From Raillietiella orientalis (Eukaryota): a DNA stretch of 64,000 nt. The DNA is taken from contig JAYWIR010000031.1 in assembly GCA_036172245.1 (NCBI GenBank), positions 372,001 to 436,000 of the forward strand. The letters are read 5' to 3'. Every line of letters starts with the position of its first letter. The stretch's first letter is position 1. Position numbers and translations under genes: made by a program. A model generated the notes under the pieces. That model searched no databases, had not been told where the DNA came from, and saw only the letters and a program-made list of their open reading frames with translations. Below are positions 14,401 to 59,493 of this stretch, in pieces.

Positions 14401-14939
14401 AAGATGGCATTCGGCAGCAGTTAGAAATAACTTTGCAGAACAAAGATGAGCAGATTAACCAATTGCAAGAAAAAGTGGATATTCTTCAACAAAAGAATGC
14501 ATCTTTACAAGTAAGGTGGTTTTACTATGATTTCTTTTTCCCTATAGTAGTTTGATAGTGTAAGTATGAGCAGCTACAACAAACACTGCAATCCCAGCAG
14601 AATCACACAAGCGGGGAGGTTCAACCTGAAAAAGGTAATAAAAGAGCATGTTCCTCGAATGAATAGAATATATATGTTTTTCTTGTAGATCAACCGGATT
14701 TGTTCAAAGAATTGCAAACAGCTAGGCAGGAAATTGAGAAATTGAAAACCGATCAAGAAGATTTGCTGATCTTGCTCTCGGATCAGGAGTCTAAGCTGAT
14801 TTCATACAGAAAAAGGTTGATTCTCTTAGGGGAGCAGGTAGGATGACGATGATATGTTTTTAACCTTCTAATTCTGCCAAAGCTTGATGATGATGATGAT
14901 GAAGCAGACCATCTTGATGAATGTGATATCATTAAATAA
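11422..14939 (+). CDS. USO1: General vesicular transport factor p115 (USO1), ~15 exons, ~780 aa
   Basis: Spliced translation MDLIRSGIKSVLG...DAET|VERLIDRIQSSTLLEDRRDACRAVK|SLSKRYRVEVG...PMGISKLMDMLSDSCEVIRND|...IQKIVAFENGFERLLD...GGIVVEDCL...EELLRVQLAT...DQEDLLILLSDQ plus acidic tail LDDDDDE; canonical GT-AG introns (e.g. 11500-11563, 11639-11872); stop TAA 14937-14939. Confidence 0.95.
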
Positions 14940-15249
14940 TATGACATTTTTAGTCTTTCGGACATTTCCAGTTCTTGATTTTTTATTACCTCGGATTATT
15001 CCGAGGATTTTAAGACGCCATCATCTGGAAACATTAACATACAAAATTCATTGCTGCAACCATTGATTCTTGTCAGTATCTGTGGCACCCCAGGGTGTTA
15101 TCAGAGATCAGCAATTCCTGCAGGCTACAGTTTTTTGCACAACACTGAACAGAACCACAAGTAACTGCAAATAGGATCAAATCATACACAAAACGTAGCC
15201 TATGCAATCGGAAATACGATCTGTCACACAAAGTACCTATCACGTTTTT

Positions 15250-17960
15250 TCATGATCCAGCATCGGTTGCAAGTTTTTTACCGAGGTGATCCATTTAATG
15301 ACTTTATATGTCAATCAGGAAAATGTGACAAGACTGGTCCATTGACAAGCAAAATTAGAAATTTAGAAAAGTCGAATTTCACGATGAGTCGATTGATCTG
15401 ACCACGAATTCAGTTTTCTCCCTCACCTAGTAAGAGTAATAAAGGGTGTTCGCTGAATCCCCAACCCGCCAATGCGTACGCCCTGATGCATTCAATCTTT
15501 GCATGCGCTAAGATTGTATCCAAGTTTGTTACTACTGTTACTGTGAAATCGGATGCAGAATAAAAATGCAGAGTGTCATAGAGTTTTTGCCTCATTTTAC
15601 GAGCATCGAGTCAATTTTTATTCTTCGGATGCTTATTTCCGTGTTCATGATTTCATCGCCACTTTTATTTTCTGCTTTTGGAAGCAAAATGCATTTGGTT
15701 TTTGCAGCAGCACCCCATAACGGCAAACACGTTGGATGCCGTGGTGGCTGTTGCTTTTGATTCAAGAAATGTCGAAACTTGAAATGCCTTCTTCAATTGC
15801 GCTTAAACGGGAAGTGCATCGAGTTGATATTTCGAACGTCATCTCTACAAGTTAAAGAATGACCAGGCTTCCCGTGTTTCTGGTACAGTTTCACCCCCGC
15901 AGGCTGCTGAGGACTCGTTCAGGTCAGATAGGGAAAACGCTGCCACGTTGGTATAGCAGCACTCGGTCAACTTTCAGCAATTTGCAGAGTTTTCCTCATT
16001 TTGCGTTGCATCTTTTCCAGCCGTGTTCCATTTCTATTTTTCCTTGTGCGTGCTGGCCTTCTACATCTTTTCGATCTTTCGCGCAACCTTTTGCCAGTAC
16101 CAGCTTCATACAAGTTTTGTGTAAAAGTGAAATGCACAGCAGCACGTTTCTCTTTCGCTCGTTCTTTTTGCACGCATTTTCAATGAAATCGCCTTGAATG
16201 GAAACCTTGAAACCTTTTTCCAGATTCTTGTTATCTTTGCAAGCTAGTTTGTAGTTTCGTAAATAGGACAGTTCGTTCAAGTCATTTGCTACTACTATTT
16301 GCTGAATGATTTTTCATCCATGAGGCGCCACTTCTCGAGTTCCTTTCCTGTCTGTCCCGAGATTTGCAGTTCTCTTGTTAGCTTTCTGTAACATAAATAC
16401 ATCTCCTTGCAAATATCACAGTGCTCAAAATGCTGACGAAGGGTGCAGCTTTTTGCATGCATTGCATTTGCTTGACGCTAACCGTCTGCGTGGTGCTTCT
16501 GCCTATCTTGCCGCTACATCTGCCTATCTTCGTCGCTTACGAAAATCTTGTTCATTAATTGGGAGTAAATTGACGGTATTCTGTATTGATATTTACGGTA
16601 CGGTGTACCGGTTTCACATTGTAAAAGTGATAAGTTGGTAACAGTGAGAAACCAGAAGGAATTGTTTGGCAACTGTTCGTCCGATGCTCTTTCTTAATTA
16701 AGCCACGTCGTGCATCCAGAATTCTCGAGCAGTTCTTAATACATCTTATCACGTAAGAAAAAACAAAACACGTTGATTTCTCAACCAGTCCGGGCATCTT
16801 CCATAGTTCCGAATTCAGCATACAAATGATTCGAAAATTGCTCGTCCCGAATTCTCCGGTCCGCAAGACCGAGAAGTTCTTTCGCGTTGAATTGTCCAAA
16901 GGACGCTTTCTTTTAAATTGACAGAGGCTTAAGGGATGCCTAGGGGATGCTGAGGAGCTGATAGAACTGCTAGGATATCATTAAGAACTGTCTCCCAAAG
17001 AAGTAGCGAAGCTATTGTACCTGCGAGAGTAACCGAACAGCGGAGGGGCCTGCAAACGTTCAAGTAATAGCCTGGACATTGGCGGTGGTCAAAAAATAAG
17101 AAGAATCAAAAATAATCGATAGAAATTTCTCATGAATTATTCCTAACAAGATTTCTTTAGATAGTTGGGCCGAAGAGATAAGCTGTTTCTGATAATCACC
17201 TTCAAATCAGAGGTTGCATGGTATTCAGATTTACAAAACCTCGAACACGGTTACCAGGTTTCTCCGCAATCTTGAGATAACATTTTCTATTTTATCATAG
17301 CAGACTATTCGGAATTAAATGCTTGCCACAAAAAAGACTTCTCCAGAAAAACAGTACACTACGATTCCGTTGTCTGAATTCATGCGTAGGTTTTGGTCGA
17401 GGTTGCTAAAATTTTATTCAACAGAAATTTGCTGTATGGCTTAAACCTTATCTCTATCATGTCGTCTAGTTTCTACAATACTTAAAAACTTGTCTTTTAC
17501 TACGGCTGATTGTTTTCATTCTAGTGTCTTCTGCAAGTGATGAGCCAAAAAAATGGATGTGACATAATTTTCTTTTCTTTACAAGAAAAAAACGAAACTT
17601 TCATTCCATGTTCGGATTCCAAATACTACCTGGCTGCTCTTTTTTTAAAGTTTTTCCATTTGAAAGCCAGTGAAATCACTGTCCCAACATATGGCTTAAG
17701 GGGCATAAGCAGTTTTGAAACCAAGCTTCCAATCGGCTTTCGAGAATGCCTTTACCGTAAAAGAAATACTTTGTATTTGTACTGTATCAAAGCTCCAGTA
17801 CTCTTGATCCTAGTACTGCATAGCACCAAGGAAGCGGCCACGAGAAGGCTGCATACATGCAACGGGCCTGAGGGTTTCTTTCGAGATACAATTTAAAAGA
17901 TTTCAACACCAAAAATTGGAAAGGAAAGCATTTATTCACGGAGAACCGGCTTCTTTTTTA
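15250..17960 (-). pseudogene. Near full-length intronless Argonaute pseudogene
   Basis: Colinear remnants: GNRVRGFVNLN and LSETAYLFGP (L1), LRYFFGRQF (PAZ), KRKRPLDNSTRKNF...CSRIL (L2), KRCNAK*GK (~16013-15990; KINAKLGG), IQRVCRYGV (15737-15711; IIVYRDGV), QKLYDTLHFY (QKRHHTRLF), NLDTILAHAK...ALAGWGFSEHP...LGEGEN (VVDT.I.HP...SHAGIQGTSRP...VLWDEN) in ORF 15410-15595. Confidence 0.75.
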
Positions 17961-19199
17961 AGATACACTATGAATGGCGCATGACCAAAGTTCCGATTGG
18001 CAGCACGAAACACTGAAGTTGAAACTCCTCGACATGGCTCTCGAGTCTTTAGCCGTTTCCTACGAAACGCACACACTTCGTAGAGACGTCAACGATGCTC
18101 ACGAACGCCAAATGCTTGGCTTGAATTCCGTTTGTCAATTCGAACCCGAGATTCCGTAAGGGAGGCTGGCGTCCAAAGTCCGACTTCATCAACGGAGAAC
18201 AGCCAATCTCGCAAACTCTGAAGTTGCAGAATCAATTCAAAAATCCAACATCCAACACCTGATGGAATGGAAAATGCGCACACGAATATGCAATTACAAG
18301 TAACTGATTTCTACTACTTGATTCTCAATACGATACACCTACTCAACTAACAAAAAGGAACAAAGTCATATTCAGTCAAGTGTTGTGAGAATGGTAAGTT
18401 CAACATGAAACACAGAAAGTCTCATCTTCTACAGCAATCAGCAAATCATGCAACCATGAGTGAAACAATGGCATTCTCGTACCGCAAATCGTGCCTGCTT
18501 TCTAATTTAACGGATGCAAAATCTGATCAGCTGCAAGAAATTCTACCATAAAGAAACCTGCATTGAGAGCAAACTGGGAATTTGCTACATTTGGAAAAGA
18601 CCTGGCTAGCTAGAAAACTTGCAATAGTCCATGTTCCACCAGAAATCAAAAATAAACGTTGTCTTGGATATGTCATTTTTCCATGATTTGATATTTTGAT
18701 GAAGCTTTGATATTTCCACGTTAGCAACAAGGCTTTTCTTGACTGGCAATCTCCAGCATATGCCACGTTTCCATCGATGATCCCCAAATAGTTCTCATCA
18801 AACTTTTTCTCTGCATGCTGTTTCCTAATCTAACTTTTGTTGGGTATTTCAACTCTATCATGTATATCCTGGAAAAATATTAACAACCTGTTTTCTCATG
18901 CTATTTTAAATAACTGGAGGAGATGGCAAACATTAGTCACGAGTCCTATAAGCCATGAAAATGAAAGCTCTTCAATCAACCTGCAAGAAAAGCATGCTCA
19001 AAATGCAAACTACGATAGGGAAATGTGCTTGACACTGACTGTACAAAACACGTATATAAATACATATATCTAAATAAAAAAGGAGGCATTACGCATGCTC
19101 GATTTCACATGAGCCACATCAAATTACATGATGCAGCCTTGATTTCTGATAAAGAGTAATAACCACTGAAATCTTTGCAAATAGAAGAACACTATTCAT

Positions 19200-22100
19200 T
19201 CAAGCATGAAAATCCAGTAATAATTGACCATCCTTGTTGCAAACTTGAACGCAGCCATCGGAATAGTGAGTTTCTTGTTGGCCGTCATGATACACATACT
19301 TGATAGTGCCGTCTGGATACAACCATTTCTAAATCAACACATTCATTGATTCCTAGTGGAGATCGAGAACTACCTTGAAATTCTGCGACTTAAATTCTTT
19401 CAAACCATCAGGAAACACCACTGTTCTTGTGCCGTCTGCTTTCTTCTCTACATGAGTACCGTCAGGAAGTCTGATCTCTTCTGAACGATTCGAATAAATA
19501 ATTCGCTGATGACCGTCAGGAAATGTTATTATGATTTTACCATCTGGACAGTGGTATTCCTTCTGACCACTAGAATCTAAGGGAATAGAGAAAAAAAGAG
19601 AAAAAAAACTTACCTACTGAATTCTACAAACTGAATGCCGTTGGGATAAGTAGTGTGTTTTACTTGAGCTGCAGCATGGAGATAGACAACAGTCCCATTA
19701 TCCAAATGCTCCTCCACATCCCCATTGGGAAACAGGATGCGACATTCTTTATTCGTTTTTCCAGAAACGACAAATCCTCCTTTGGGAAGCATATGCAGCT
19801 GTCTGTTTCTCAAAACCGGTAATTCATCTTCTATGACTTCTGGTTTCATTAATTCTTCAGCATCTTCAGACTGATGTTTCAAGCAGTCTTCAATCACCGA
19901 TGCATGTGGCTCATCCTGTGAATTTCTGCTCCCAACAACCAGTTGAGGTGTTTGCGTGTCACTTTCACCTGCTAACTGACTTCTTGGATTATCTTGCATT
20001 AAGTCACACACCTGAACAGATGTGGAAATCGCATCCTTATTTGCAGCGGAGGTAGATTCAGGTGGCGGTTTGCTGCATATCAGTGCTGAAGTAATCTTAT
20101 CTGCATCATTAGTGCCAAGGCATCCTTCTGTTTTCTGCAATGCTGCATTGTGTTGATCTAGTTGGTATATACTTTCTGATATGGACTTTTGAGGACAAAC
20201 TTCACAAATAACAATCTCGCTGCTAAAATGTGTGACAGCTTGAACTGGCTTCTCCAAAATAGCCATTTTGTTCTCTTTTACAAATTTGCTTAACTTTGTA
20301 TTCAGCCTATTAAAGCTGAACCCTGCTTTATGCTGTTGCTTTCCCTGCAACATTTGGTTGCTAATACTACTCACTGATCTCCACTAACCTGTGGTGCTTC
20401 TTTGTTGACTGAAGAATTACCTACTTCTTTCAGAATTTGATTCTGTCTTTCAAGAGTTTTGATCTTCTCTTGCAATTTCAAGCGACTCAAGGAATTTTGC
20501 CTATCTTTAGCTTTCAGTTGTTTCTCAAGTTGTTCAATCTGCGAAAGCTTAAATAAATAGAATATATCGGAAGCATAATAACCTTGGCTGTCAGTGCACA
20601 GATTCTCTCACTCTCCTTCATGGCTTTCTGGTTCCGAAACCTTGCTTTATCGTTTTCCAGAGCTATCCGTTCCAACTTGACACGATTTTGTTCAGACAAC
20701 ACTATCTGGAGCATACGCCGCTTTTCCACTACCATATGTTGCTCAAATTGTTGTCTCTGATTTTGTATTGCCTCGGAGAGTTTCTGCAGTTGTTCAATAT
20801 GTTTCCTCAAGTCGGACTCATTTTCAATGCAAAATTGCCTCCCAGTCTTTACGCAGGTTTCACTTTTTTCTTTTGTTTTTTCACTCTCTAGACTTTCTGC
20901 CTTCTTCCGGTTTGTGGCTTCAGGACAAAAATTCACTTGATGCTTGCCAGCAACTTTGAGTTTTTTAAAGGACCCCGATCTGCTGTTTTTCTGATGAGGA
21001 GAAGAAAGCAGTGAAGTCTGCCTTGCTTGCAGAATGCCTTTCTTGCCAGATGCTGCATTTTGGACCTTAGTCTTCCCTGAATGAGATGTACACAGGAGTG
21101 TCTTTCCAGCATGCATGCCCTCTTTTGGTTCGTCAGATATCTTATTTTCCATACTGTTAAACAAGTTATTCAGATGCACAATCAAATCCGAATGCTCATC
21201 TGGAAGAATGCCACCTTGGTTTGATTGAAAAAGTGTTCGCATGTGTACAGGTTGATTATTATCTTTTTGATCATGCAGATGAGCTGGATGCTTGACTTCA
21301 TTTCTGATGCATGATTCTTCTGGAGACAGTTGTTGTTTCAAAGGAATGTCTTTTAATGGTTTGCCCAGTTGATCCATGGGATCACATTCCTGAACACAAA
21401 CGGCAGCTGATTTTCCAACTTCCATCGATATTTCTTCAATATCTGTTTCCCAATCGGAGTTCGAATCAGCTCTGCTGCTTCTCTCTTGTACATCATGGGC
21501 ACTGTGATCATCAGGTGAACTCGGATAAGATTTAATTGGGCTAATAACCGGAGTCAACAAAAACTCCGAATGCTTATTTTTTGTAGGCGTAGAGGTGATA
21601 TCATTTGAGTTGGCAGACTTACTTAAGTATATCAGATTATGAACTTTCGAAGAACTAGAATTAAAACTTGAATGTTCAACAATTTCTTCTAATTTTTCAA
21701 ACACCGCTAGTTCTGCTTTTTCTTTCTGAAATCATAATTTTTTGTGTGATGGATCGTAAACCTACCAGCTAATTCTTTCATTTTCACCGCAATTCAACTA
21801 AAATAACTCAACTCAACCGTTCATTTAAGCTGTCTCGAATTTTTAAAATTTAAATACTCAATAAGATTAAGATTGCCTAAATTAAAGCACCACGACTTTC
21901 ACATGCTACGATAATTGGAAATTACCTTATGCACGTCTGGTACCCTAGGGAATGATTTGTTTTCGTGCACATCACACTTGACGTATTGCAAGATTTCATT
22001 ACACCTTTTTATTTTGTCCAGGAAATTGATACCAGCTGATGTATTGGAACTTATTTTCACTCTGTTCTCATTCTCGCAATCAGGCTTACAATCCGAATAT

Positions 22101-22246
22101 TTCTTTTTTGTATTCGGACAAAGTCCGGGAGCGGTACGCAGATTCATCCGGAATCTACGCAAACCATCCCCCTTTTTGAGATATTGTTTCTCTTTAGTGC
22201 ACGCCACCAAATGGTCGGCTACTTTTCCTGGATCCTCCTCCGTCAT
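19200..22246 (-). CDS. CENPJ: Centriolar protein CENPJ/CPAP/SAS-4, copy 1 (multi-exon)
   Basis: N-terminal QYLKKGDGLRRF (PN2-3 tubulin-binding FLKRGEGLARF) and ELAVFEKLEE, central coiled coil, C-terminal TCP10/G-box repeats (FPNGD, YPNG, FPDG, YPDGTIKYVYHDGQQETHYSDGCVQVCNKDGQLLLD); stop at 19200-19202. Start codon and the small exon near 21765-21800 are uncertain. Confidence 0.92.
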
Positions 22247-23049
22247 TATTCACTCTTTAATCGAAACTTATCCTCCGGAAAACATGACCAAACGAGAACG
22301 AACCGGCAGCCCCAAGGAGCCAGGTGCAGTTCACCCGCGTTACAAGCACCACCATACCATCGGCTACCACCCTCCTCCAACTGATCGCAAACAAGTCGAT
22401 CGAGTTTGGCGCTTCCAAAAGCAGGGCTTACAAGGCTCTTCGAGTCTCGTCTGGTGAAACTCGCGTTTTTTGTGTGTTACAAATCCAACTTCCAGAATAC
22501 GTTATTTCCAGAAACCTCAAATAGAAGATTTAAAAATAAGTTTTATTTGATACTATGAACTGCAATTCATGTCACGAAGCATTTTGGATTTTCGCAATGT
22601 ACTTGCTCTTAGGCCTCAAAAGCTGGCTGTCTGCTTTCTTTCGTCTTGCTGCACACACTTTTTATGGTGATGATCATGACAAAATTAGGGATTATCTACT
22701 ACCAATATTCATCCGATCATTGCAACAACATGCTACGAAATGGTGTTTAATAAGCTGAATTCACAAAGGACAAATACATCGAACTGAAGGCAACAGGCTT
22801 TCTCAAAGCACGGATCTCAAAGTATTCGAGAGCTGCACAATAATTGGGAATCTTCATTCGCTTTAAAATTTCCTATTCATAATTATTATTCTTCATAAAA
22901 AAATAACGATGTGAGACATTACAAAAAACACGAGCTGCTCAAAGAAGAAAACAAACGATAACAGCCATAACAGATGTTTGAATACTGTGATCAATACACA
23001 ATATCGTATTTCATAATAAGAAAATGCTTTTCAAACAATCGAAAACATC

Positions 23050-23900
23050 ACGCCAACGTAGGCAAGAAGCTTTCAAATACATCTTTCGGTTGGATCCAGC
23101 GCATTTCTTCGGAGTCATGCGTTCACAAAAATGAATAGGGTTAGAGGGCCCAGACTTATGGAGAAGCGAGCCGATTGAGGACTGATAAAACGACTCCATC
23201 CATCGAGCTTCATTCGATGCTGAGAGCCTGAAGTACTTCAGGCTTTCTGTTTCCCAGTCCGCCTATGTGGAAGTAATACAATTTCACCTTAGAAGAGGAA
23301 TTTATGAGTGAGCACACTTTGTGTACATTCCGGAGATCGAACTCAAGCAGATGTCCTAAAAGTCTCACAGATGCAAGTCTGGAAAGTACATGTTTGGAAA
23401 AAGGCATGCTCTTTAGTCATCTTTAGACTACGGTGAGCATGATGTATCCCTAGGAATACCTAGTCACCTTCTGACTTGGGTCGACGAAAGACGTCACTAA
23501 AACCTCGCAGCAAGACGGGAAACACTGCTATAAGTGACTTGTACCAGTGGCTCTTGTCTTCTACCTGTCTCTCCCGTATCGTCCTAATCAACGTAAGACG
23601 TTCCAAGAAATTCATTCACGGATTTGTCTATGCCGCTCGCGGTCCAGCTTTTCCCTTCACATCCAGAATCCGGAAAAAATAGCCTTCCCCGGGAATGAGT
23701 TTGTGATGAATAAAATGATCACTGATTCAAAAGTGTTGAGGAAGTGCTTCTATTTTCAAGAAAGGAAACGAACTTTCTCGGTGTGTGATACTACTTTCGA
23801 AACCACTCATGCTTTCCTCTCGATTTCTTGTTTAATCTTACGGATCTATGAGCGGAAGTGAATTGTAAGCTATGTTCCAGAAGGAATACTCCAATCCTGC
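23050..23900 (-). pseudogene. Probable decayed Argonaute fragment (N/L1-PAZ)
   Basis: Weak remnants: FVDPSQKV (L1 xDVSxK) and MESFYQSSIGSLL...NPIHFC (PAZ V..YY...L...P.E.C). Confidence 0.35.
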
Positions 23901-24238
23901 ACAACTATTTACCTGGAACAAGACTGCTAAATCTCAACGTAATCTTCTTTTACTGCTACAAGTCACTTCAGTTGCTTACAATGCAATATTACACAAATTC
24001 TAGAAGCTCATAAAATAATTGTCTTCCCAGAAATTCAAATCAGTGAAGACAGCAAGCACATTATTAGTAATTTTATTTGAATTCAATCCTCAATGGACTG
24101 AAATAATGTTCCATCTACAATTACAAGGCCAGCTTTCAGCCGTTTCTTTTTGATCCATAGCACCATGACAGGGCCATGAAAGGCAGACCAGCAAGCATTT
24201 CTTTCAAATTTATAAATAAAAGCAAGTAAAGCTTCATC

Positions 24239-24881
24239 TCAAATAAGAAACTTAGAGTTTTGGTGGATATGAGGAAGACGCAAGTACACATCTGTACCAA
24301 TTCCTTGCATGGAGTACAGTTGCAAACTTCCTCCCAGGTATTCAGCAAATGCTCGTGAAGAAGGTAATCCAAATCCATACCTTTAAGATCAATTTATGAT
24401 AACAATTGTTTAAATCGTTAGCATCAATGTATTACCCATGCATTTTAAGATCAGAAGGGCTCTCAATGAAATCACATAAAAGACCTCTATCCTGACCTGT
24501 TCTTTGTTTTGAAGTAGAAAAATTATATTTCATGACTTCATTTATCAAATCGTGACCAATTCCTCCTCCTCTATCAGAAATTCTGATTCACGTTAAAATG
24601 AAATACATGTATATATATATATATATATATAAAAGTGTACACAAATACCTGACAACAGAGTCAGTATTATTATTGGCTACTGTGACAAACACATCTGGTA
24701 TTGTATTTCCGTGAGCCTGGACAGAGTGTTCCATGGTTGCACTAATGCTTAATTAATCATGTATGAAAACAATGCTTCTTTACCTAGCTGTATTCTTCAA
24801 TAATTCAGGAATAATCTAATCTAATGGAATATCGATGTAAGGGAAATGGCATTTACATGTCCTGACAGCTTGAATGCTGGT
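24239..24881 (-). pseudogene. BCKDK: 5'-truncated BCKDK copy (part of exon 5 through stop)
   Basis: Duplicate of 59494-60137 ([26 protein letters not shown]); lacks exons 1-4 and has a 1-bp deletion near 24845. Confidence 0.9.
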
Positions 24882-25399: not shown

Positions 25400-27345
25400 G
25401 AGCGCTCACCGGCGCACCCTTCAACGCCAGGAATCGACCGCGGTGCAGCAGGAGCAAATCCTGACTCGCATCTGCGAGCTCCAGGAGGACATAAGTCAGT
25501 CGGTGGAGGCATGCAAGCGCAAAAAACTGGAGACCAAGCTTTTCGAGGTGAAGGCAGTTTACTGCGCGACGGTCAACTCGGAGACCCTCCCGCGCAAGGT
25601 GGTAGCCAGGGCCGAACGCTCGATGGAAGAACAAGACATGACAGACCAAACCGGCACGGAGAGCAATGCCAGTAGCGAGAAGCCCGCTTCTTCTTCCTCG
25701 GAAAGACTACAACGGTCTCCCCGACAGAAGAAGCTCAGAAAGGGCAAGAAATGAACCCCCTTGATGGCCTCGTCCTTGTCCACCGCCAGGAGACTAAACA
25801 TCGCCTCCTGGAATGTTAATGGACTTCAAGACCAGAAGAGCAAGAAGGAGAAGAATAGTGCGGAACATCGCGCACTACGACATCCTGTGCCTAAAAGAAA
25901 CCCACGTGATGGGGCAGCAAATCAGCTTTGACTTGGAAAGGCGATTGAACGTCCAACTGTTCACCAGCGATGGACATACGTACACCATGGGGGTGGCGAT
26001 CTCAATCAAGAACGAGCTCGCCGCCGCCATCCTGGAAACCTTCTGTCCCGTACCTGGAAGAGTCATCGTCTTACGATTGTCCTGGTCCGCAAACGTTCAC
26101 CTGTTCCTGGTGAATGTTTACGGACCCCACCAATACAAGAATCGGTGCGCGGAGACGCTTCACGAAGCCTTCCGACAAAAGATCGCACCGAAGGACATCG
26201 TCATCATCGTTGGGGACTTCAACATCCCGGATGAAGTCGTCTATTCCCGGGACATTGTTCCCAGGACGGCGTATGGGCGGCTGCCCGACGAGTTCGGACT
26301 GCTATGGCTAACAGCCAGCCACAAACCGATCGATCACGTCCTCTACAGCTCCGACATAGGGAACCGAGTCCTCGGTTTTCGCGACACGCTCCACTCAGTG
26401 TCCGACCACCCGTTGATGAGGTTTTCCCCGAGGACTGAAAACCCTCGCCAAAAGAAGGCGAGGGTTGCCATCAGCATGTCCGCCTAGTTCGAAATGCTAC
26501 CTGATCACCAAGAGCTTATAGAGGCGATTCTGCAGTTGACTACCATCAGCAGAGTCGCCGACTGGGATAGCTTGAAACACTGAGTCCACCTCTTCTGTAA
26601 CATGCAGTTCGGTGACAAGAAATTGAGGCAGGAAGCGTACCGGGAGCTGAACATCCAAAATCGCTCCCTCTCGGAGTACTGGCAAGATTACGAGAGTCGG
26701 TACGTCTTCCAAAACATCAAGGGAGAAGTCGGCGTGCTGGAGAAGAAGAATCTGACAACAGATATCTTCTGCATCTTGTACGATGGTCGCGCCAGGCACA
26801 CGTCGGAGGATATCACCGAAGCCTTCCAAAGGCACTACGTAGAACACTTCCGACGCAGACATCTGTGCAAGTCATACCAAAATAGTTTCTTGAAACATCT
26901 GGAAAGAAGAGTCGAGGAAAAGAATCGAAAGATGCTGGAAGAGGAAATCTCCGAAGAAGAAGCGAAAGCTGCGTCTAAGGACCTTCGCAAGGATGTGGCA
27001 GCGAACCCTGATAGTATTCCCATCACACACTATCAACGGTTACCTGCATGCCCTGTAAAGGGTCATCGGGCTATCCACCGCCTCAATCATGAAGGTTTTG
27101 GCAGGGATATCCCAGGGAACTGGAACGGTTCCCCACTATAACCTCATGGTAAGAGTGACCATCGCCCTTTTCATCACTGCCATTATTGTGCGGTGGTGGA
27201 AGATGAAGACCACGAGGACCACCATATCTCCACTGCACATCCTGAAGGGGTTCATCCAGACGGAGACCGGCATCAGAATCTGCGGACGAGTGCAGGCCTG
27301 GAACTACCGACACATCCTGAGAAGGATTGGAGGAAGAATCTAGGC
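25400..27345 (+). mobile_element. Tx1/L1-clade LINE: ORF1 end plus ORF2 APE endonuclease and RT start, decayed
   Basis: LNIASWNVNGL (~25795-25826), YDILCLKETH, NVYGP, IVGDFN, IDHVL, SDH (APE motifs); EEISEEEAKAASKDLRKDVAANPDSIP (pre-RT K.PGPDGIP). Confidence 0.9.
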
Positions 27346-31115: not shown

Positions 31116-31559
31116 TTTTCCCCTCCCCCTTGTCAGCGAAGAGGACTTCAAAAGCCTGAGGGCTGGTAAAGACAAGTGTTCAAGACAGGCAGAACCACGT
31201 TTTATCCCTCGATGAACCTCAAGACTTCATTATAAGATTTCATTTTCTGAAAATTTTAATGATAAATGCCCCGGCATATCCGGGTGAAAAACCATAGAAA
31301 CCAAATATGCCACACCCAATTATTTCCAAGTTTCTAAACACAAATTCCACAAGTGTGGACTGAAAATGCCCTGCGTGCCGAAGAAAAGTGCTGTGCACCA
31401 CCACGGACGAAGTCCATGCGATTTGAAAGGAGGGCTTCGAAGTCAGGAAGGAAAAAAAAAACCTTCTTTCCACCACTGGAACTTGTAGAACCCAAGTGCG
31501 TCCCTCAAGACAGGAAGAGGACAGCAACCTGTCGACAAGGTAGGCGATTCCGAACTGTT

Positions 31560-31800
31560 GGAACCTTCGTTAGACTGCTCGATCGATCAAGCAGATCCGC
31601 CGATCGAACCACTTCGACCACCCGCTTTCGCTCCCGCCGCTCTTTCTAGAAGCAATCCTTCCCCTCGAAAACGTTCGGAAATACCCCCCATCCCCCCAAA
31701 CCACGGTGATGCATCGAAATTTTTTCCGGTCGATTTCCCCGAAGATTTATATTCTTGTGCACCTCAATTTTGTTCACGAAGGATTGCCATCCCGCTTGCC
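31560..31800 (+). pseudogene. Possible Argonaute N-terminal fragment
   Basis: PPIPPNHGDASKFFPVDFPEDLY resembles PPRP..G...ANxFxVxxP...LY at the start of the N domain. Confidence 0.35.
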
Positions 31801-32189
31801 TCAGATTCCTTTGTTTTTGTCCTTTTTTTTCTCCGGGGAACGCAATGTCCCGTAAGCCCTTTGAATCTCCAGTCATCAACGTCATGTCTTCGTTTTGTGT
31901 CGATTTCCAATGATGGTGGGTGTGAATGGGATGTTGAACAAAAGTGTAACCTGCAACTGAGCCACCATGCTCATGTTATTCTCAATTGAGCATCCCTGTA
32001 GGTTTTGAAGCGAAACATCGCAATGTTTTTTCCAACATCCTGGTCCGAAAAATTTCTGGTCGCGAAACAAAATAAATAAATAAAAGAAAAAAAGAAAAGA
32101 AAGGAAAACCAACAAAAAAAGAAAAGGAAGAAAAAAACATTATGTCTTCGGAAGCCCTTTTTTCGTGGAAGACGAACACTGGAATTTTG

Positions 32190-32580
32190 GATCAGCATTT
32201 GCATGCATAGGCTGACGTAATGTTTTTGCTTCCACTGCCCTCGTGGATGGAGTGGGTATGCGGAAAACCGACAGCTGGACAGCACATCATTTCAAGCATT
32301 TTTCTTCTACAGGAGCACTCCCTTCCTCCTGGTGGGTCAATCCGCTGCATGCCATCTCCCCCTTTTTTTCGTTGGCTCCCCACAGAGAATAAGCCTCCCC
32401 ACCAAGCCCTTCTCTCCCCACCCGAGATCCCGAGTTGCAATTGGCGTGCCAAGTGGAGGGATGTGTGAATTCACTATCCTCGCCTACCCAACCTTGGAAT
32501 CTTCCGTTTCCGGAGACCCCCTGCATCGCAGGCCATCCAGTGGCCCCTGTGAACAGACAGATTGTTGCTCCCATTGCCCT
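32190..32580 (-). pseudogene. Decayed Argonaute PIWI C-terminus
   Basis: VGEDSEFTHP (VVD..ITHP), HANCNSGSR (SHA..GT.R), AYSLWGANE...GLTH (Y.VLWD.N...LT), CAVQLSVFRIPTP (RC..SVSIP.P). Confidence 0.55.
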
Positions 32581-32626
32581 CTCTATTTAATGTTACTGAA
32601 ATTTTGATATAAATAAACTAATTAGT

Positions 32627-33744
32627 TTATTGAACTATTGCATATAGTAATTTCACAGGTTTTGGTGGATTTGATGAAGTATGCAAGGTTTTTTCCGTCC
32701 AATCATAAAGTGGTTCACCTCTATGACCATTGGCATATAATGCCATAAGTACTTCACCGGCTTCAACTTTTCTACCATTTTTTCTATTTAGATGAATTTC
32801 AGCCATCTGATCAATTGCCTGTTCTTTTGTGTTTCTGTTAGCAAATAAACGAACTGCTAACAATCCAATTTCACTAGCATCAACTATTTCCACATTACCT
32901 GTGGTTTTACCTTGAAGTTCAATTCTCTTTTTGGTATTTAACATGAAATCAAGATTATCCATAGGATCTATCAAAGATAAATCGCCAACCTGTTCTTTAA
33001 GGAACTCCATTAAATATTCTAGTGGTTCTTTTGTTTTCCATCCAGCTTCAGATGCTTGAAATGCTTCATCCAAATCATTCTATTTTTCACCCTAACACAA
33101 ACTTGGTGCCCCTGATTCACACACAATACTATGGGAATCCTCAGATCCACTCCCCTGCAAAGTTTTCACAACTTCCTGGATTTCGATTGCGCTACCAATA
33201 GCCCCCACCCAATGGTTGATCCATATTAGTAATTTGAGCTGTAATTTTTTTATATAAATGTTTTGCAATTCCAAGCATAACGTAATCTAGTTGCTTTGCT
33301 TCAGAGACTGATTTCGTAAATGCACCATTCCACACTGAGCATCGAAAACAATTCCTTCACTACCCACCTGGACTTCACTACACTGGCAATTTTCTTGCAC
33401 AGGATACTTGCAGCAATTCATGGAATTCGATTCACAGTTGCAGTAGCACTTCTTAGGGCATAAACCTCTTTCCCTACTGGAACAATATCGCTTGATTGCA
33501 ACATTGCAACATTCACTCTATGAAGAACACGTTGAAATGCTTGAAATCCAATTTCCACTTTGAAACCTTCAAAGCTTTCTCATTTGTCAACTGTTCCTCC
33601 AGTTTGGCCAAAACCACGGCCAGACATTTCAGCAATATTTGAACCAAAACTAGCTCATGGTGCATAGATTAAACTAACTTGATCACCAACACTACCGGAT
33701 GACTGCTCATCTATCTCGAATCCTTTAACACCTGATGAATTCAT
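32627..33744 (-). pseudogene. deoA: Bacterial-type thymidine/pyrimidine-nucleoside phosphorylase pseudogene (Mollicute-like)
   Basis: SGVKGFEIDEQSSGSVGDQVSLIYAP*ASFGSNIAEMSGRGFGQTGGTVDK*ESFEG...VYALRSATATVNRIP*IAASILCKKIA...GIVFDAQC-GNGAF...ITNMDQPLG-AIGSAIEIQEVVKTLQG...DASEIGLLAVRLFANRNTKEQAIDQMAEIHLNRKNGRKVEAGEVLMALYAN matches the DKHSTGGVGDK/SGRGLGxTGGT/YALRD/SKK/PYNP_C signatures; intronless, with stops and frameshifts; N-terminal ~65 aa missing. Confidence 0.92.
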
Positions 33745-34295
33745 ACTGGAAAAAATCCCCCCTGAAAGATCAGCTTTTTTCCCAGCACGATCAAAAGCGA
33801 ACTTTAATGCGAAACGCATATCCCCCGTTGATGGAAGAGCGTCCAGAATAGTAAGGTCACCACTTTGAAAAATACAAGTGATTTGATCTCAGTCATCAAA
33901 TTTACCTGCACTATCAGTAAGAACACTGCCTGAGTTTGCTGACGTTTCAATTTTTGTTGCTACTTTTCCGACGTCATCAAGTGATTTTTTGAAAACATTA
34001 GATTTTCGTTCACGATGATCACCTAATATTTCTTATTAAGGTTGAAGACTTGCAGCCTCTTCAATTGGTTGATTTGAAATCATTTCTTTATTCATTTCTT
34101 CAATTCATCTTTTCAATCTCCGTGATGCTGAGATTTTGATAAAAACATCGAAATTATCTTGTAATCACGTGTTGTATAGGATTGCAATAGGTCCGTTCAA
34201 AATTCAATTCCTCCCACTTCATTTGACTCATTACTTTTAAACAGGCAATTACTTGATGCTGATACACCAATTGCAATTTTGCTGGCAAACAAGTC
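33745..34295 (-). pseudogene. Mollicute-type lipoprotein-like fragment, in frame with the phosphorylase remnant
   Basis: IAIGVSAS-VIAC lipobox-like signal (VIAC at 34252-34241, one frameshift) followed by a K/N/E/S-rich frame in which TGA reads naturally as Trp (YNT*LQD, LKR*IEE, FDD*DQI). Confidence 0.5.
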
Positions 34296-34815
34296 ACACA
34301 AAATGATTACAAGATAACTCCATAACCCATTGCTGTAAAATCTGCATCAGCTGAGACTGTACAAAATTTCCTCTGCTGCTCAGATTGAATGTGCTGACAA
34401 AGTATTTTGCTCAGCTTTAGCTAAAACATGCAGTTTTTGCACTTTATTTGGCATTTTGCACCCCATTTTTGCACCCCAACGATTCCTTTGAAGTTGCAAT
34501 TACATTCTTATATAATTGATCTGTGGACGAAGGAATCGAATTTCTGTTAAATTATGACTCCGTATTGAATTCGTTCCAGAAACCTCAAAAAATTGAACAG
34601 AATAATTTTCGATTTATTTTGGGAATTTGTATTATGGGAACATAAACGTAAAAATGGGAAATTATTTTCCAAAATGAAAATCACAAAGATGGAAATGTGT
34701 TTCTAGGTGCCTCCTTTCTGCATCTTAGCCGGAGTGGAGGATGTTGGTTCGCTCTTTTTTTGCTCTCTTCACTGTCTGAAGGGTGCAGTGAGTGGCACTG
34801 CCGTGAGGATTCGAA

Positions 34816-35194
34816 ATGGCTCCGAAGTCTGGTAGGGGTGAAGTCTGGTCTGGAAGGCGGTGAAGAACATCACGAAGGGGGACAAGAAGAAGAAGCGGAA
34901 GAGGAAGGAGGAGACTTACTCCATCTACATCCACAAAGTGTTGAAGCAGGTGCACCCGGACACGGGCATCTCCAGCAAGGCCATGTCGATCATGAGCAGC
35001 TTCGTGAACGACATCTCCGAGCACATCGTTGCAGAAGCGTCCCGCCTGTCGCACTACAACAAGCTCACCACCATCACCAGCGGGGAGACGGCGGTATGCA
35101 GACGGCGGTGCGCCTGCTGCTGCCCGGGGAACTGGCCAAGCATGCCGTTTCGTAGGGCACGAAAGAAGTGACCAAGCACACGAGCTCGAAGTAA
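34816..35194 (+). pseudogene. H2B: Histone H2B pseudogene
   Basis: MAPKSG...[69 protein letters not shown]...[30 protein letters not shown]; frameshifts and a premature stop; eroded stem-loop (ggctc..agag) ~35236. Confidence 0.95.
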
Positions 35195-35299
35195 ACTCTG
35201 CTTCCGCCAGCCCGTGCACTCCAACCAACAAGAATGGCTCAAGAGAATCTTCTGCGGTTGTTGTTTTCTCTGTGTCTTTCACGGTTCTTCGGTGCTGTC

Positions 35300-35770
35300 T
35301 TCCGGAGGGTCATCTGGTTGGGCTGCGTTTGTCCTTTTTACGTGCGTTGCTTATATGCTACTTGAAGAGCGGATGCGGGTGGCTACCATCCGTTGCCTTA
35401 GTTTCACAAGCTTCTTTTATGGAATTCCAACGTATTGGAGTACCTCTTCGTTTCCAGGATCCCATGCTCCAAGTGAGCCGATAAGGATCGCATGCACTTT
35501 GGTTTGTTTTCCAGTGTTTCCGAGTTCCATTGCGACATCTTAGCATCTGGCTTCTTTGATCTTCCTGGCTGCGGTGAACGTCTCCTTTCCATTTTCGAAT
35601 AGGCAGGAGATGTCCAGCACACTTATTCGGTCACGTTTTTCTAAAACCAGGTCTGGTTTTAGGCTGGAGGTGCTTCCTGGAACTCTGCGATTTCTCGATT
35701 CGTATCATGGAGGGCGAGACACTGGTCTCATCCTCCGTTCCGCAACGCCGACATATTCTTTCACGTACCC
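35300..35770 (-). mobile_element. 3' end of an R2-group (NeSL/Utopia-like) retrotransposon: CCHC plus restriction-like endonuclease
   Basis: ICRRCGTEDET...LKPDLVLEKRDRISVLDISCLFENG...ARKIK...IGSLGAWDPGNEEVL (PD..D-K REL motif). Confidence 0.85.
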
Positions 35771-36679: not shown

Positions 36680-38122
36680 AAAGTTTGAAATGGCTTGCTG
36701 GTCCATGAGCTGTAAGAGAGAAGTGGTATTGACCAGCAAAAACTTCATGTTGATCAAACTAGATTCACCCACTGAATGTTGTTCTAAAATCGGGGGATGA
36801 GAAGGAGCGTTGTCCCTCACTCGAAGAACTTTGAAGAGAAGGTTTGTTTCAGTGAAGCACTCGCCGCAGGAGGAAATTCTTCATGAATCCACTCGGTGGA
36901 AAACTGTCGGTTAACTCACGCCTTCGGGTAGGCCGTCCACGAAACTTCCAAGCTGCTCTTCACAACACTGCTCTTTCCAAACGTGCGTGGATTTTTAAAA
37001 TGGCGAACGAGCAATGGCTCTATCTTGCAAGGCCCACTAGCTTTACCACAGAGAGACAAGGTGAACGCATCTTTCATCTTGGTTTTTGCCCCTGTGCCCT
37101 CTTTTCTTCTTTTGTAATATAGGTCCTCCTGGGCATTCCTTTCCATATAAGACCTGTTTGATCACGATTGCAATCTTGTTGAGGTGCAAATCCTTTACTG
37201 TATAGAAACTCCTTAAATCATCTTGCAAAATAGTTGGCTTCCTCAAAGTTGGCCCTCGCAGCTTCGCAATGCATCACTGCGCTGCTGATCCTTTTTGGAA
37301 TTGATCGAATGAGCCTGCACTTCGTTTAAGCTCCTCACTTTCAGTACCGGTTTCAAGTGTGCGTTTCTTGAGTTCACCATGCAGATGCTGGGCTTCCTCA
37401 CATCTGATTCTCTCGGTGATGATGTCACCAGCTATTCTCTTCTCATGTGTCCACACCAAAAGGAATTTTTCCATCTCTTCAATAACGTGTGACTTCCTCG
37501 AGGTCAAGCGTGTCGCACCTTCAGCCACAACCCTTGCTCTTGTTGCACCCTTGTTCTTGGGAATGTTTATCTTATCGTTGGCTTTGGCATTTTAAACATT
37601 GCCAAACAGTTTGAAATTAACATGTACCACTTTCTTCTTTCACGGTGATTTTTTTTTCCATTCCAATTGCCGACTCTGCAACCTTTCTTCCACGTGTCGT
37701 TCTTTCGGATGCCATGGTTAATGAAGAAAAAGATATCGAAAATCAAGGGAAGCGTGCATCACACGTACGTCTTACGCAATCCCCGTGGTGCGTAGTGCAA
37801 GGGGAGATGAACACTGCAGTGGGAAGTGGGGAAGGTATGGCAAAGGTACATTGCATCATCTCTATGTACGTAGGCGGGGGATTGCAGCCCGTGTTCACTT
37901 GGCCTCACTTGCAGGCAGATGCAACGCGTCTACGCCGTACCACCAGCGCTTGCCACTGCTGTGTGCATGCATATAAGTGACATACGTTATGTAATTTGTT
38001 TCCCATGCCAATTTGTGTCAACATCCAGAATCCGAACCATAGTTCGAGCTCCGGATCCAATCTTAGCGTTGGAGCTCTGCAAGGCTCGAAGTTGGAAGCG
38101 TTCGAAGGAGGAGGCACCACTG
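36680..38122 (-). mobile_element. Tigger/pogo DNA transposon, 3'-truncated, transposase 37715-36680 decayed
   Basis: EEMEKFLLVWTHEK (HTH CENP-B), GLIWKGMPRRTYITKEEK, KIEPLLVRHFKNPR, DNAPSHP, NTTSLLQLMDQQAISNF (DDE_1); terminal CAGTGGTGCCTC on the minus strand ending at 38122 next to TA (38123-38124). Confidence 0.92.
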
Positions 38123-42959: not shown

Positions 42960-45748
42960 CTAGACGAGACGACTGCCACAAAATTCTCAGCTTCAGCAAC
43001 GAAAATGTAACATCACCAGTAAAAATCATCCTAAAAGTGAAAGAGCCGAAACCGTTCAAGAGGAAATTCGTGATAAAGCCTCTAAATAAAGAAGCTATTG
43101 CAAATTTATACAACATGAATAGAAGGAGCGAGATAAGAACGATAGTAGAACAGAAAAATGCCATGTGCTCACACGACACCCAAAAAGTAGAGGACTACTT
43201 TCATCAGGAACTGGAAATTCCCAAAACAGCGAACAAAGAACTGGTGGAAAACATTATTAGAAAGAAAAGAAGAGACCTCTCCTGTGAATATGACTCTTTT
43301 CTCCACTAAGTAGGTGGCCAATCTCCTGAGGGAAGCAGAAAACTCCAGCCCAGGAACGGATGGAATCACATGCACAGGATGGAGAAAAGTGGTTCCCAGC
43401 TGCGAAGGGGATATTCAACATATCATTGAGAACGAAGAACACAATATCCACCTGGAAGTGCACAAAAACCGTTCTGCTCCCGAAGCCAGGAAATACACTT
43501 CAGGAAATGGCAGACTAGTGACCGATCTCCATTGGCAACAGCATCCATGGAGTGTACGCGAAATACCTTCCAAGAATTAAAGAATGGCTTATAACCATTG
43601 AGATTATTTGCCTCCAGCAGAAAAGTTTCGTGCTATTTGATGTAGTGCTCGATCAAAACCTCATCCTACAGACACGTTTGGATCAAGCGAGAAGATATCG
43701 CAAAGGCCTGGGACAAGTCTTCATTGATCTTACAAACGCATTTGGAAATACCTCGCGCTAGTTTCTGCTAGGAACTCTTAAGGAAACAGGAGTAGGTGAG
43801 CAGTTCGTTACGCTCATTCAAGACCTATATGAACACAGCACGACGTTGATCCAAGTGGAGTCGGGGTCACAAGACTACGAAAACTACGAAGAGGAGTCAA
43901 GCAAGGATGCCCGCTGAGGTCCTCGGTCTTCATATGGTCCTTAGAGCCGGTAATTAGAACATTCAAAGAATCTCACGGTGAAGACAGGCCTGCGCAGATG
44001 ACCTGGTGATCCTTGCGGACACCGAAGAAGAATTCAAAAAGCGAATATGTCACATGGAATCAATATCAGAAAGAATCGGACTCACCATCAACCCCACAAA
44101 GTGCACAACACAATTCTACCGAGGGGAAACGCCAAAAGGCTTGAAGCAAATGGAGACTCAGCTCAAGAAGGGTCTCATTGCGAACACGGAACCTCCGGAA
44201 GCCTACAAGTACCTTGGAAAGCCATTCGGAATCGAGATCTTCAACAAGCAAACAACCAAAGAAGACATCCTTACAAAAGCAGAAAATTTTTTATCATCCG
44301 AACTGTCACCGTGGCAGAAGTTGGATGCGCTTAAAGTATTTTTCTTCCCTAGCCTCATCCACTTCGAGAGGCTAGGGATGGACCCGGAATCGGATTGGAA
44401 ATATCCAGACATCAAGATAAGACTGCTAGTAAAGGAAATACTTCGTCTTCCTCCGCAAACGAACACATTTACGGTGACCGGAAAAAAGGTTGCCTTGGGT
44501 TCTTGAGGCTATCCGATGCAGCTGACAACTTCATCGTGAATAGCTGTTGCAAGCTTTGAACATCGCCACACAAAATTGTAAGAAGTCTCGCCGGAGAATC
44601 TTTGCGTGAAGCGTAGCGAAGAAAATACTCCAACCACCCACAGACGAAGAAACCGGTCGATTTCTTTCAGGAGGATGCAACGGGAAGTTTGAAAGAAGCA
44701 GCGGTAGACATCAAGAGCTTGTAGACTACTGCCAAGCAAGCTTCCAAGCGCACCAAGGCCATATTAGATTTCAAAGATGGTGGACCGAAAGTGCAAATTC
44801 ATGGAGTGGTGTTAGATAGTACGGCTAGGAAGAAATTCGCGGCCAACTTCCGAACAATCCAACGAAATAAGATGTGGCTTTCCGTGATAAAAATCATCGG
44901 AACCAAGGGAAAGCTATTAACTGCGTTGGACTACACAAGGATTGCAGCGACTTCTTCACTTCAGATGACCGCCTTCTATTCGTGGGTTGTCGCTTCATGC
45001 ACGCCACAAAGCTGTCCTGCCAATTAGAGAAGCAGCAAGAAGATTACCACCCGATCGCCTGTGCCGAAGATCCAACTCTCGGGAAGAAACATTACCGCAC
45101 ACATGAAATCGTTGCGTCGAGCATTTCCCGATGTACATCTCTCGACATAATGCTATCGTGCTGAGACTGCAAGCAGCCGCCACAAAGGTAGGAGGATGCA
45201 AGCTCATATCAGCGGACCAAAGGGAGCCTGGAGTGGACTCCCGGTTAAAGCCAAATCTCATCTTTGAAAAGTGCGGAAAGTGAAATGTAGTGGACGTCAT
45301 TTGCCCATTCTAAGGCAAGGGAAACGCTGAAGCACCACAAAAGAAAGAGGAAAAATAGGAAAATTTGATCCAAAGCAATAGCCAGACCGACAGAACAGCC
45401 ATCATGCAGGTCTCCATCGTAGGAGCTTTAGGATCGTGGGATGCCAAAAATGTTGCTTTTCTGAGACTACTAGGAATAAAAGGAAATGGCGCCAGAGAGT
45501 TACGAAAATTGGCCATATCGTGCCGCATCAGGGAAAGTAGGGACATCCACTTGACGCACAGACTGGGGCATGAACCCGACGATGCAAGCGACCCCATCCA
45601 ATACATAATAAAGGACAACCCAAGATCCAGTCCATTGTCAAATCAACAGCAAATCATCAATCATAAAGGAAAAAAAGAAAGAGCCAGCGAGAATGATTCT
45701 GCAGATGTAACAATGATGAATTCAAGAAACAAAAATTGCAAGTTTTGA
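42960..45748 (+). mobile_element. R2-group (NeSL/Utopia-like) non-LTR retrotransposon, decayed RT plus REL
   Basis: IANLYNMNRR, SSPGTDGIT, FIDLTNAFG, GVKQGCPL, ADDLVILA, YKYLG, SELSPWQKLDALKVFFFP, LKPNLI...VDVICPF, IVGALGSWD; a C2H2-like CCIC...H remnant at ~41960-42015 may be its N-terminal zinc finger. Confidence 0.92.
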
Positions 45749-49068: not shown

Positions 49069-49225
49069 CATTAGTCATGAGTCCTCTACGCCATTAAAAC
49101 AAAAAATCCTCAATGAACCTGCAAGAAAAGCACGCTCCAAATTCAAACTACGATAGGGAAATGTGCTTGACATTGACTATACAATATATACATATATATA
49201 TATATATATATAAAAGAGGCATTAC
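49069..49225 (+). repeat. Older diverged copy of the SAS-4 3' flank (18931-19092)
   Basis: cattagtca.gagtcct...aacctgcaagaaaagca...caaactacgatagggaaatgtgcttgaca...gaggcattac shared, with many substitutions and an (AT)n expansion. Confidence 0.9.
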
Positions 49226-49232
49226 ATTACCG

Positions 49233-50194
49233 TCTCTTATTTGATGGCACAAGTTTCAATCCAAGACTGTTCAGATGAGCTCGATATTGTTTGCCAAGGA
49301 CTGTGTGCTCTCTTGTTGGCCCTATGTGTGCATTTTAATAACAATACAGTTGCAGCATTTACGAGGTGTAGTCTGGCACAGCTTATTGAGAAACGTGTTG
49401 GTTTAGAGACATTTCTTACGAAATTATCAGCAGTTTCCAAACATGAATTATATAACCAGGCTCACAAGCAACCACAACTCCACTATCCACATTCTACACA
49501 GCTACTCTTTGACCACGAGTTCTGCAAATTTTTTAGGATGCTTGAAGGTATAATCTGTGCCTAAAAGATTGGTGAGAAGCAGATTTCAGCCACTTTGTTG
49601 AGGACGCTGACCTCAGTTTGTGACCTTGCTGGTAACAGTTCTCCTACTCCAGAGGAAGATGGCATTCGGCAGCAGTTAGAAATAACTTTGCAGAACAAAG
49701 ATGAGCAGATTAACCAATTGCAAGAAAAAGTGGATATTCTTCAACAAAAGAATGCATCTTTACAAGTAAGGTGGTTTTACTATGATTTCTTTTTCCCTAT
49801 AGTAGTTTGATAGTGTAAGTATGAGCAGCTACAACAAACACTGCAATCCCAGCAGAATCTCACAAGCGGGGAGGTTCAACCTGAAAAAGGTAATAAAAGA
49901 GCATGTTCCTCGAATGAATAGAATATATATGTTTTTCTTGTAGATCAACCGGATTTGTTCAAAGAATTGCAAACGGCTAGGCAGGAAATTGAGAAATTGA
50001 AAACCGATCAAGAAGATTTGCTGATCTTGCTCTCGGATCAGGAGTCTAAGCTGATTTCATACAGAAAAAGGTTGATTCTCTTAGGGGAGCAGGTAGGATG
50101 ACGATGATATGTTTTTAACCTTCTAATTCTGCCAAAGCTTGATGATGATGATGATGAAGCAGACCATCTTGATGAATGTGATATCATTAAATAA
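49233..50194 (+). pseudogene. USO1: 5'-truncated USO1 copy (last five exons, starts mid-exon)
   Basis: Duplicate of 13978-14939 without promoter or 5' exons. Confidence 0.9.
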
Positions 50195-50504
50195 TATGAC
50201 ATTTTTAGTCTTTCGGACATTTCCAGTTCTTGATTTTTTATTACCTCGGATTATTCCGAAGATTCTAAGACGCCATCATCTGGAAACATTAACATACAAA
50301 ATTCATTGCTGCAACCATTGATTCTTGTCAGTATCTGTGGCACCCCAGGGTGTTATCAGAGATCAGCAATTCCTGCAGGCTACAGTTTTTTGCACAACAC
50401 TGAACAGAACCACAAGTAACTGCAAATAGGATCAAATCATGCACAAAACGTAGCCTATGCAATCGGAAATACGATCTGTCACACAAAGTACCTATCACGT
50501 TTTT

Positions 50505-57400: not shown

Positions 57401-57501
57401 ATCCGGAATCTACGCAAACCATCCCCCTTTTTGAGATATTGTTTCTCTTTAGTGCACGCCACCAAATGGTCGGCTACTTTTCCTGGATCCTCCTCCGTCA
57501 T
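54455..57501 (-). CDS. CENPJ: CENPJ/CPAP/SAS-4, copy 2
   Basis: Duplicate of 19200-22246 with the same open exons; one visible amino-acid change (PEATN vs PEAAN). Confidence 0.92.
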
Positions 57502-59155: not shown

Positions 59156-59493
59156 ACAACTATTTACCTGGAACAAGACTGCTAAATCTCAACGTAATCT
59201 TCTTTTACTGCTACAAGTCACTTCAGTTGCTTACAATGCAATATTACACAAATTCTAGAAGCTCATAAAATAATTGTCTTCCCAGAAATTCAAATCAGTG
59301 AAGACAGCAAGCACATTATTAGTAATTTTATTTGAATTCAATCCTCAATGGACTGAAATAATGTTCCATCTACAATTACAAGGCCAGCTTTCAGCCGTTT
59401 CTTTTTGATCCATAGCACCATGACAGGGCCATGAAAGGCAGACCAGCAAGCATTTCTTTCAAATTTATAAATAAAAGCAAGTAAAGCTTCATC

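Follow-up and report, generated by a model that had tools for sequence, protein, structure and literature searches.

Among the bacteria whose DNA has moved from a symbiont into an animal chromosome, Wolbachia is the best documented donor. In a survey of 163 ant genomes, the accessible part of the report gives 497 curated loci, with 393 assigned to Wolbachia and 37 to Spiroplasma/Mycoplasma, and among the loci is an expressed etherase gene of Camponotini (PMC13320244). By that account, the transfer of DNA from Spiroplasma to an arthropod nucleus is as such already known from ants (PMC13320244). The initial annotation of the locus studied here proposed a Spiroplasma-like donor and called it far less often reported than Wolbachia; the ant counts, as far as that report sets them out, agree with the lower frequency (37 vs 393 loci), but donors of this kind have already been published (PMC13320244). 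Spiroplasma eriocheiris, the named species to which our locus is most similar, is described in the source consulted as a pathogen of freshwater crustaceans (PMC4607517). In the open-access literature, we found no report of a relic composed of dnaB and the gene for pyrimidine-nucleoside/thymidine phosphorylase (PyNP), nor of a Mirum-like donor. Here, we describe such a relic, which is very probably a functionless fossil of Spiroplasma chromosomal DNA integrated in the nuclear genome of an animal.

The whole stretch of DNA that was analysed, hereafter the window, is 64 kb long, and its features are collected in Table 1. In terms of composition, the bacterial block stands out sharply from its surroundings: in bins of 100 bases, the GC fraction is 0.26–0.46 within the block and rises to 0.53 at 32500–32599 on one side and to 0.50 at 34700–34799 on the other. 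The bacterial DNA thus runs on past position 33744, where the initial annotation had ended it, to about 34700, and the DnaB relic described below lies inside this extension. Upstream of the DnaB start, the AT-rich tail accounts for about 230 bases. No other AT-rich block longer than 200 bases was seen in the region of 24.8–49.3 kb, no Rfam family matched at E <= 0.1 in 31500–35500, and no tRNA was found in 24000–50000.

Table 1. Features of the window (positions are counted from its first base; a dot marks a feature without strand).
Feature	Position	Strand	Basis or remark
USO1/p115 head-domain exon	13458-14306	+	PF04869, E 3e-39
LINE-type endonuclease fragment	25798-26484	+	E 8e-14
AT-rich block of bacterial origin, ~2.1 kb	32600..34700	.	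sharp composition edges
PyNP pseudogene	32627..33735	-	profiles, tblastn, frameshift-aware alignment
DnaB/PyNP junction	33736..33747	-	both pieces on one strand, frame continuous across the join
Replicative helicase DnaB pseudogene, residues ~1-240 of 455	33748..34466	-	DnaB models, tblastn, alignment
AT-rich tail 5' of the DnaB start, no assignable origin	34467..34700	.	GC 30%
Histone H2B relic	34842-35168	+	PF00125, E 8.7e-15; other frame to about 35155
DDE_1 transposase match, sub-threshold	36919-37161	-	Pfam scan, frames of 62-99 residues
LINE reverse-transcriptase fragment	43982-44503	+	E 3e-5

The larger of the two gene remnants in the block derives from a PyNP gene. The initial annotation had assigned a sequence at 32627–33744 to the deoA/pdp family on the basis of the motifs SLIYAP*ASFG, GFGQTGGT, and EIHLNRK; both the coordinates and the motifs are correct on translation of the minus strand, which reads SLIYAP*ASFG, GRGFGQTGGT, and EIHLNRK. 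The family identity is borne out by matches far beyond chance. Indeed, the alpha/beta domain (PF00591, Glycos_transf_3) reaches 47.5 bits (cutoff 27) over profile positions 5–128 of 253 in one frame, with the remainder of the domain falling in other frames, and the C-terminal domain (PF07831, PYNP_C) scores 48.5 bits, again against a cutoff of 27. The NCBIfam model TIGR02644 matches with an E value of 7.5e-41, its 140 bits lying below the cutoff of 409, and the enzyme of S. eriocheiris gives tblastn matches to the window with E values of 6e-56 and 3e-43. In a frameshift-aware alignment, residues 72–437 of the S. eriocheiris enzyme correspond to positions 33735–32630 with 207 of 362 residues identical (57%), and the native stop codon is retained at 32627–32629. 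The alignment opens at residue 72, and the first 71 residues, namely the helical N-terminal domain (PF02885), are absent from the relic.

As the initial annotation had described, this sequence is intronless and broken by frameshifts and stops; the alignment reveals three frameshifts (~33383, ~33330, and ~33206) and five in-frame stops, of which three are TGA (33655, 33580, and 33418) and two TAG (33092 and 33080). The relic nonetheless keeps the order of the alpha/beta and C-terminal domains of the living S. eriocheiris PyNP (P0004; TIGR02644 / PF00591 + PF07831), and the family motifs are still recognisable, GRGLGQTGGT of the living protein having become GRGFGQTGGT. In the segment DKHSSGG, the residues of which we take to serve in phosphate binding or catalysis, the relic reads DEQSSGS. 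The PyNP piece is hence a relic of a family member and not a working enzyme. In a collection of plasmids, the PyNP relic matched a Lactococcus plasmid PyNP gene over 120 bases at 71.5%, which is uninformative.

The initial annotation had read the block as the fossil of a single deoA-type gene. That reading holds for the deoA/pdp part but not for the sole gene, and a relic of the replicative helicase DnaB is joined upstream. Residues 8–95 of the frame in which the PyNP piece starts match the DnaB models of NCBIfam with E values down to 4.6e-8, and S. eriocheiris DnaB finds positions 34457–33748 by tblastn with an E value of 5e-40. A frameshift-aware alignment covers residues 3–240 of the S. eriocheiris protein, 117 of 233 residues being identical (50%), with TIGR00665 scoring 27 bits against its cutoff of 385. 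What remains of the protein is the N-terminal domain, followed by the linker and the Walker A region; the ATPase domain is missing beyond that point. Three frameshifts (~34349, ~34308, and ~34165) and six stops, comprising four TGA (33889, 34105, 34197, and 34380) and two TAA, interrupt it. The Walker A segment, presumably a functional site, is SMGKT in the living relatives and STGDM in the relic, so that GKT has changed to GDM. With an incomplete ATPase domain and a Walker A that is not intact, the DnaB piece is only a relic. By eye, the upstream piece had been guessed to be deoC (deoxyribose-phosphate aldolase), a candidate that was ruled out by the NCBIfam and tblastn matches to DnaB. Where the DnaB relic begins (34454–34478), we also noticed two copies of the 12-base word TTTTGCACCCCA at a distance of 13 bases, which make up a small tandem duplication of the start-codon region.

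The DnaB piece passes head-to-tail into residue 72 of PyNP without a change of strand or frame. In living spiroplasmas, on the other hand, dnaB and the PyNP gene are separated by ~179 kb in one genome (G031) and by ~218 kb in another (G001). Across the Spiroplasma genomes that were examined, some 180–220 kb thus lies between the two genes, which makes the insert a mosaic put together from two widely separated pieces of chromosome. Also, the order in S. eriocheiris is rplI followed by dnaB; unlike this canonical locus, the relic has no recognisable rplI beside it, and a comparison of L9 (rplI) with the sequence upstream of the DnaB piece gave a score of 32 against 29.4 +/- 4.4 for shuffled sequences, which is not detectable.

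Both pieces point to the same donor. The search of proteins with the PyNP core gave matches at E <= 0.001 for 4042 of 4087 candidates, and among the 16 highest-scoring entries the seven that carry a name are all Spiroplasma. The best is S. eriocheiris (156 bits, 64%), followed by the S. citri group at 58%, and the first named entry outside Spiroplasma is Aquibacillus at 116 bits. A search of 82 genomes of the family, of which 79 were scored and 78 matched, returned the same three genomes (G031, G034, and G040) as the best of the 79 for both pieces, with identities of 63–64% for PyNP and 50% for DnaB; the PyNP of the first of these is identical to the protein named S. eriocheiris at NCBI.

Phylogenetic trees gave a consistent picture. 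The PyNP tree, constructed with a careful search from 59 sequences (that of the window, 44 of 100 from the locus search, and 14 of 120 listed proteins), places the relic within a set of 26 that includes the named S. citri, S. kunkelii, S. phoeniceum, and S. eriocheiris (support 99/95), and as sister to the S. eriocheiris trio of the Mirum clade (89/47). In the DnaB tree of 24 sequences, the relic again groups with the S. eriocheiris trio (87/76), inside a clade of 19 (99/99). The sequences from the window are on long branches in these trees (0.95 and 1.1). Grouping the PyNP relic instead with 13 Mycoplasma-type sequences (Mycoplasmopsis, Metamycoplasma, and Mycoplasma spp.), a group chosen post hoc from the tree, was rejected by the AU test (delta lnL 75.2, p 5.5e-6). 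These sequence comparisons argue strongly that both pieces belong inside the Citri-Chrysopicola-Mirum clade of Spiroplasma, and a position as sister of the Mirum-clade S. eriocheiris trio is suggested with moderate support. The Spiroplasma-like donor proposed in the initial annotation is thus upheld by the best matches, by the agreement of the three genomes between the two pieces, by both trees, and by the AU test.

Together, the two relics contain six frameshifts and 11 in-frame stops. Only one of the six frameshifts is located at a homopolymer run; because the other five are not, sequencing error is an unlikely cause. At sites that are invariant in living Spiroplasma, the window has changed at 111 of 548 for PyNP (16 orthologues) and at 101 of 403 for DnaB (18 orthologues), with changes at the first, second, and third codon positions amounting to 23%, 16%, and 28% in PyNP and to 22%, 25%, and 34% in DnaB. 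The corresponding Jukes-Cantor distances are 0.24 and 0.31. When the measured substitution spectrum was applied to the codons of S. eriocheiris, 13.9 stops were predicted without selection, as compared with the 11 observed. This count is near the neutral expectation, and neutral evolution as a pseudogene therefore seems to account for most of the branch. Changes from A/T to G/C (65 of 366 sites in PyNP and 62 of 288 in DnaB) exceed those from G/C to A/T (22 of 182 and 15 of 115). The GC content is 38.0% in the PyNP part, compared with 36.8% over the corresponding stretch of the S. eriocheiris gene, and 36.6% in the DnaB part, compared with 31.3%. The composition of the block has hence moved little toward that of its flanks, which is a point against reading it as an integrated fossil. 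The initial annotation had spoken of a decayed and old transfer; the frameshifts, the stops, and the changes at invariant sites substantiate the decay, and the age would probably be great.

The stops deserve a closer look in terms of the genetic code, as reading TGA as Trp (code 4) opens a frame of 260 residues. None of the seven in-frame TGA codons, however, is located at a Trp column; at these columns, the codons of the relatives specify Leu (TTA, TTG, CTN), Val, or Ala/Ser/Thr, and three of the TGA codons are opposite TTA of S. eriocheiris. The lone Trp column, at PyNP residue 414, is TGA in all 16 orthologues and TGG in the window. Since they are off the Trp columns, the in-frame TGA codons look like acquired stops, and a TGA = Trp footprint was rejected as evidence for Mollicute coding. 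TGA accounts for seven of the 11 stops, against an expectation of about one third (P 0.037, one-sided, uncorrected); this excess beyond the simple model is marginal and says nothing on the genetic code.

A surplus of TGA would nonetheless find a place in a broader reading, in which a Mirum-like Spiroplasma genome was integrated on a larger scale and very long ago, and the relic is one shard of it. The animal that carries it would then belong to a lineage that has no close relative among annotated species and that may lie outside the insects, and the block would be the fossil of a germline-associated symbiosis dating back tens of millions of years. Part of the decay would have occurred inside a degenerating symbiont that read TGA as Trp, where changes to TGA would be missense and tolerated. 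We regard this reading as unlikely.

For the reading that we prefer, a functionless fossil of integrated Spiroplasma DNA, the following course of events can be proposed. Spiroplasma residing in or beside germline cells would have released DNA, which may have been captured at a chromosome break via end-joining. Two fragments, covering dnaB over its 5' half and the PyNP gene over its 3' five-sixths, would have been ligated head-to-tail, either at insertion or through a later internal deletion. Neutral drift would since then have left the six frameshifts, the 11 stops, and ~0.24–0.31 substitutions per Spiroplasma-invariant site. With that number of frameshifts and stops, no product is possible; the block therefore makes no protein and has no function.

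The surroundings of the block are littered with the debris of transposons. The open frames were scanned with Pfam in two sets, namely 91 frames that nearly all have 100 or more residues (80 from 24.5–49.5 kb and 11 from other parts of the window) and 68 frames of 62–99 residues from 29.5–43.5 kb. The H2B relic begins ~140 bases from the edge of the block; it has no counterpart to the initial ~30 residues of the profile and is frameshifted before the C-terminal helix. In the left flank (about 30–32.6 kb), these open-frame scans found no recognisable eukaryotic gene or transposon. The initial annotation had placed the block among animal transposable elements, histone, and Argonaute debris; H2B and LINE debris are indeed present, but no Argonaute debris was found in the open-frame scans, which were not exhaustive. 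Exons of animal USO1/p115 are on the same contig as the insert, and the host is an animal. Their identity to any protein in the collection is at most 53%, with ticks, a horseshoe crab, shrimps, and fishes about equally similar, and the host seems to belong to a lineage without a close annotated relative.

Such a neighbourhood also invites the idea that the pieces arrived indirectly, having first been carried in a mobile element, a virus, or another eukaryote and having then reached this site by transposition or a second transfer, as one of many copies. The LINE fragments, the weak DDE transposase match, and the histone relic would fit this idea, as would the two pieces in one orientation and frame, which resemble captures of gene fragments. 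Around the block, however, no flanking terminal repeats or target-site duplication were seen, the repeats present being short, imperfect, and chance-like, and the 64 kb window has no second copy of the insert. When the 150-residue frame of the PyNP C-terminus was compared with proteins of 82–263 residues in the protein collection for independent copies, furthermore, none of the 24 candidates scored as a related short open frame. An indirect arrival is accordingly judged distinctly improbable.

In the assembly, continuity of the insert with host DNA is indicated by the sharp GC edges, the H2B relic ~140 bp off, and the LINE and USO1 sequences on the same contig. Direct copies of 10.9 kb (13975–24881 and 49230–60137; 99.73% identical, with 28 mismatches and one gap) enclose a repeat-rich block of 24.3 kb that contains the insert, and the second copy starts inside a USO1/p115 exon (13458–14306 vs 49214–49561). 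The pair may have arisen by a segmental duplication of recent date, or two alleles may have been placed in tandem by the assembly, and the local assembly may be imperfect because the 24.3 kb block sits between near-identical copies. Each copy also contains an open frame on the minus strand (23930–24382 and 59185–59637) that, by eye, is like a mitochondrial pyruvate/branched-chain ketoacid dehydrogenase kinase at its ATP-binding end.

The near-identity of these copies as a possible sign of assembly trouble, together with the unannotated left flank of the insert, would suit a misjoin in which a Spiroplasma-like cobiont, alive or in degeneration, had its DNA built into the host contig. We nevertheless consider such an artefact very improbable. 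The piece is only ~2.1 kb long, with eukaryote-type sequence on both sides and the H2B relic close to its edge, and both genes are truncated and fused, which would be intolerable for dnaB in any living cell. The 11 in-frame stops, the change at 20–25% of the Spiroplasma-invariant sites, and the five of six frameshifts away from homopolymer runs speak against it as well, as does a closest known relative that is just 57% (PyNP) and 50% (DnaB) identical. Taken with the small size of the block and with a decay and truncation impossible in a living bacterium, the assembly is best read as indicating a probable chromosomal integration.

Virtually no weight can be given to the idea that the locus is a relic of the animal's own TYMP, which is in the same family and which in a search of solved structures is matched as the human enzyme at E 3e-20, or a domesticated bacterial gene still at work: in that search Bacillus PyNP scores 106 bits vs 76 bits for human TYMP (a comparison of search scores only, the trees being without animal TYMP rows), Spiroplasma reaches 156 bits in a separate search, the PyNP tree puts the relic inside Spiroplasma, the adjoining DnaB relic has no animal counterpart, the sequence is intronless, and a working gene is at odds with six frameshifts and 11 stops that leave no product. 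An origin from animal TYMP, placement with which the initial annotation had named as one result that would overturn its view, is not supported, in view of the lower score of the human protein and of the intronless sequence.

As the block has no function, its biological weight is modest, and so is its interest unless it is part of a larger or datable integration. If orthologous copies occur in related hosts, the relic could date an ancient association between the host and Spiroplasma. For annotation and contamination screens, it is a bacterial-looking block that should not be discarded as a contaminant, and its TGA codons are no proof of Mollicute coding for annotators. The locus furthermore provides a data point outside ants, in the form of a decayed two-gene mosaic closest to Mirum-group spiroplasmas.

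In comparison with the nuclear symbiont inserts of arthropods, from Wolbachia and in ants, as far as the available part of the report describes them, the present relic would likewise be embedded in host chromosomal sequence, as judged here from the assembly (PMC13320244). Those inserts are fragmentary, rearranged, and mostly pseudogenised, as is ours, and the type of donor, a heritable or tissue-invading bacterium associated with arthropods, would be common to both in the terms of that partial account (PMC13320244). Relative to the ant loci as presented there, on the other hand, the genes involved are dnaB and that for PyNP, the donor appears nearest to the Mirum group, and the host is neither an ant nor, with a USO1 identity of 53%, close to any annotated species (PMC13320244). 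Compared with the expressed ant loci covered in the same portion of the survey (PMC13320244), finally, the relic is more decayed.
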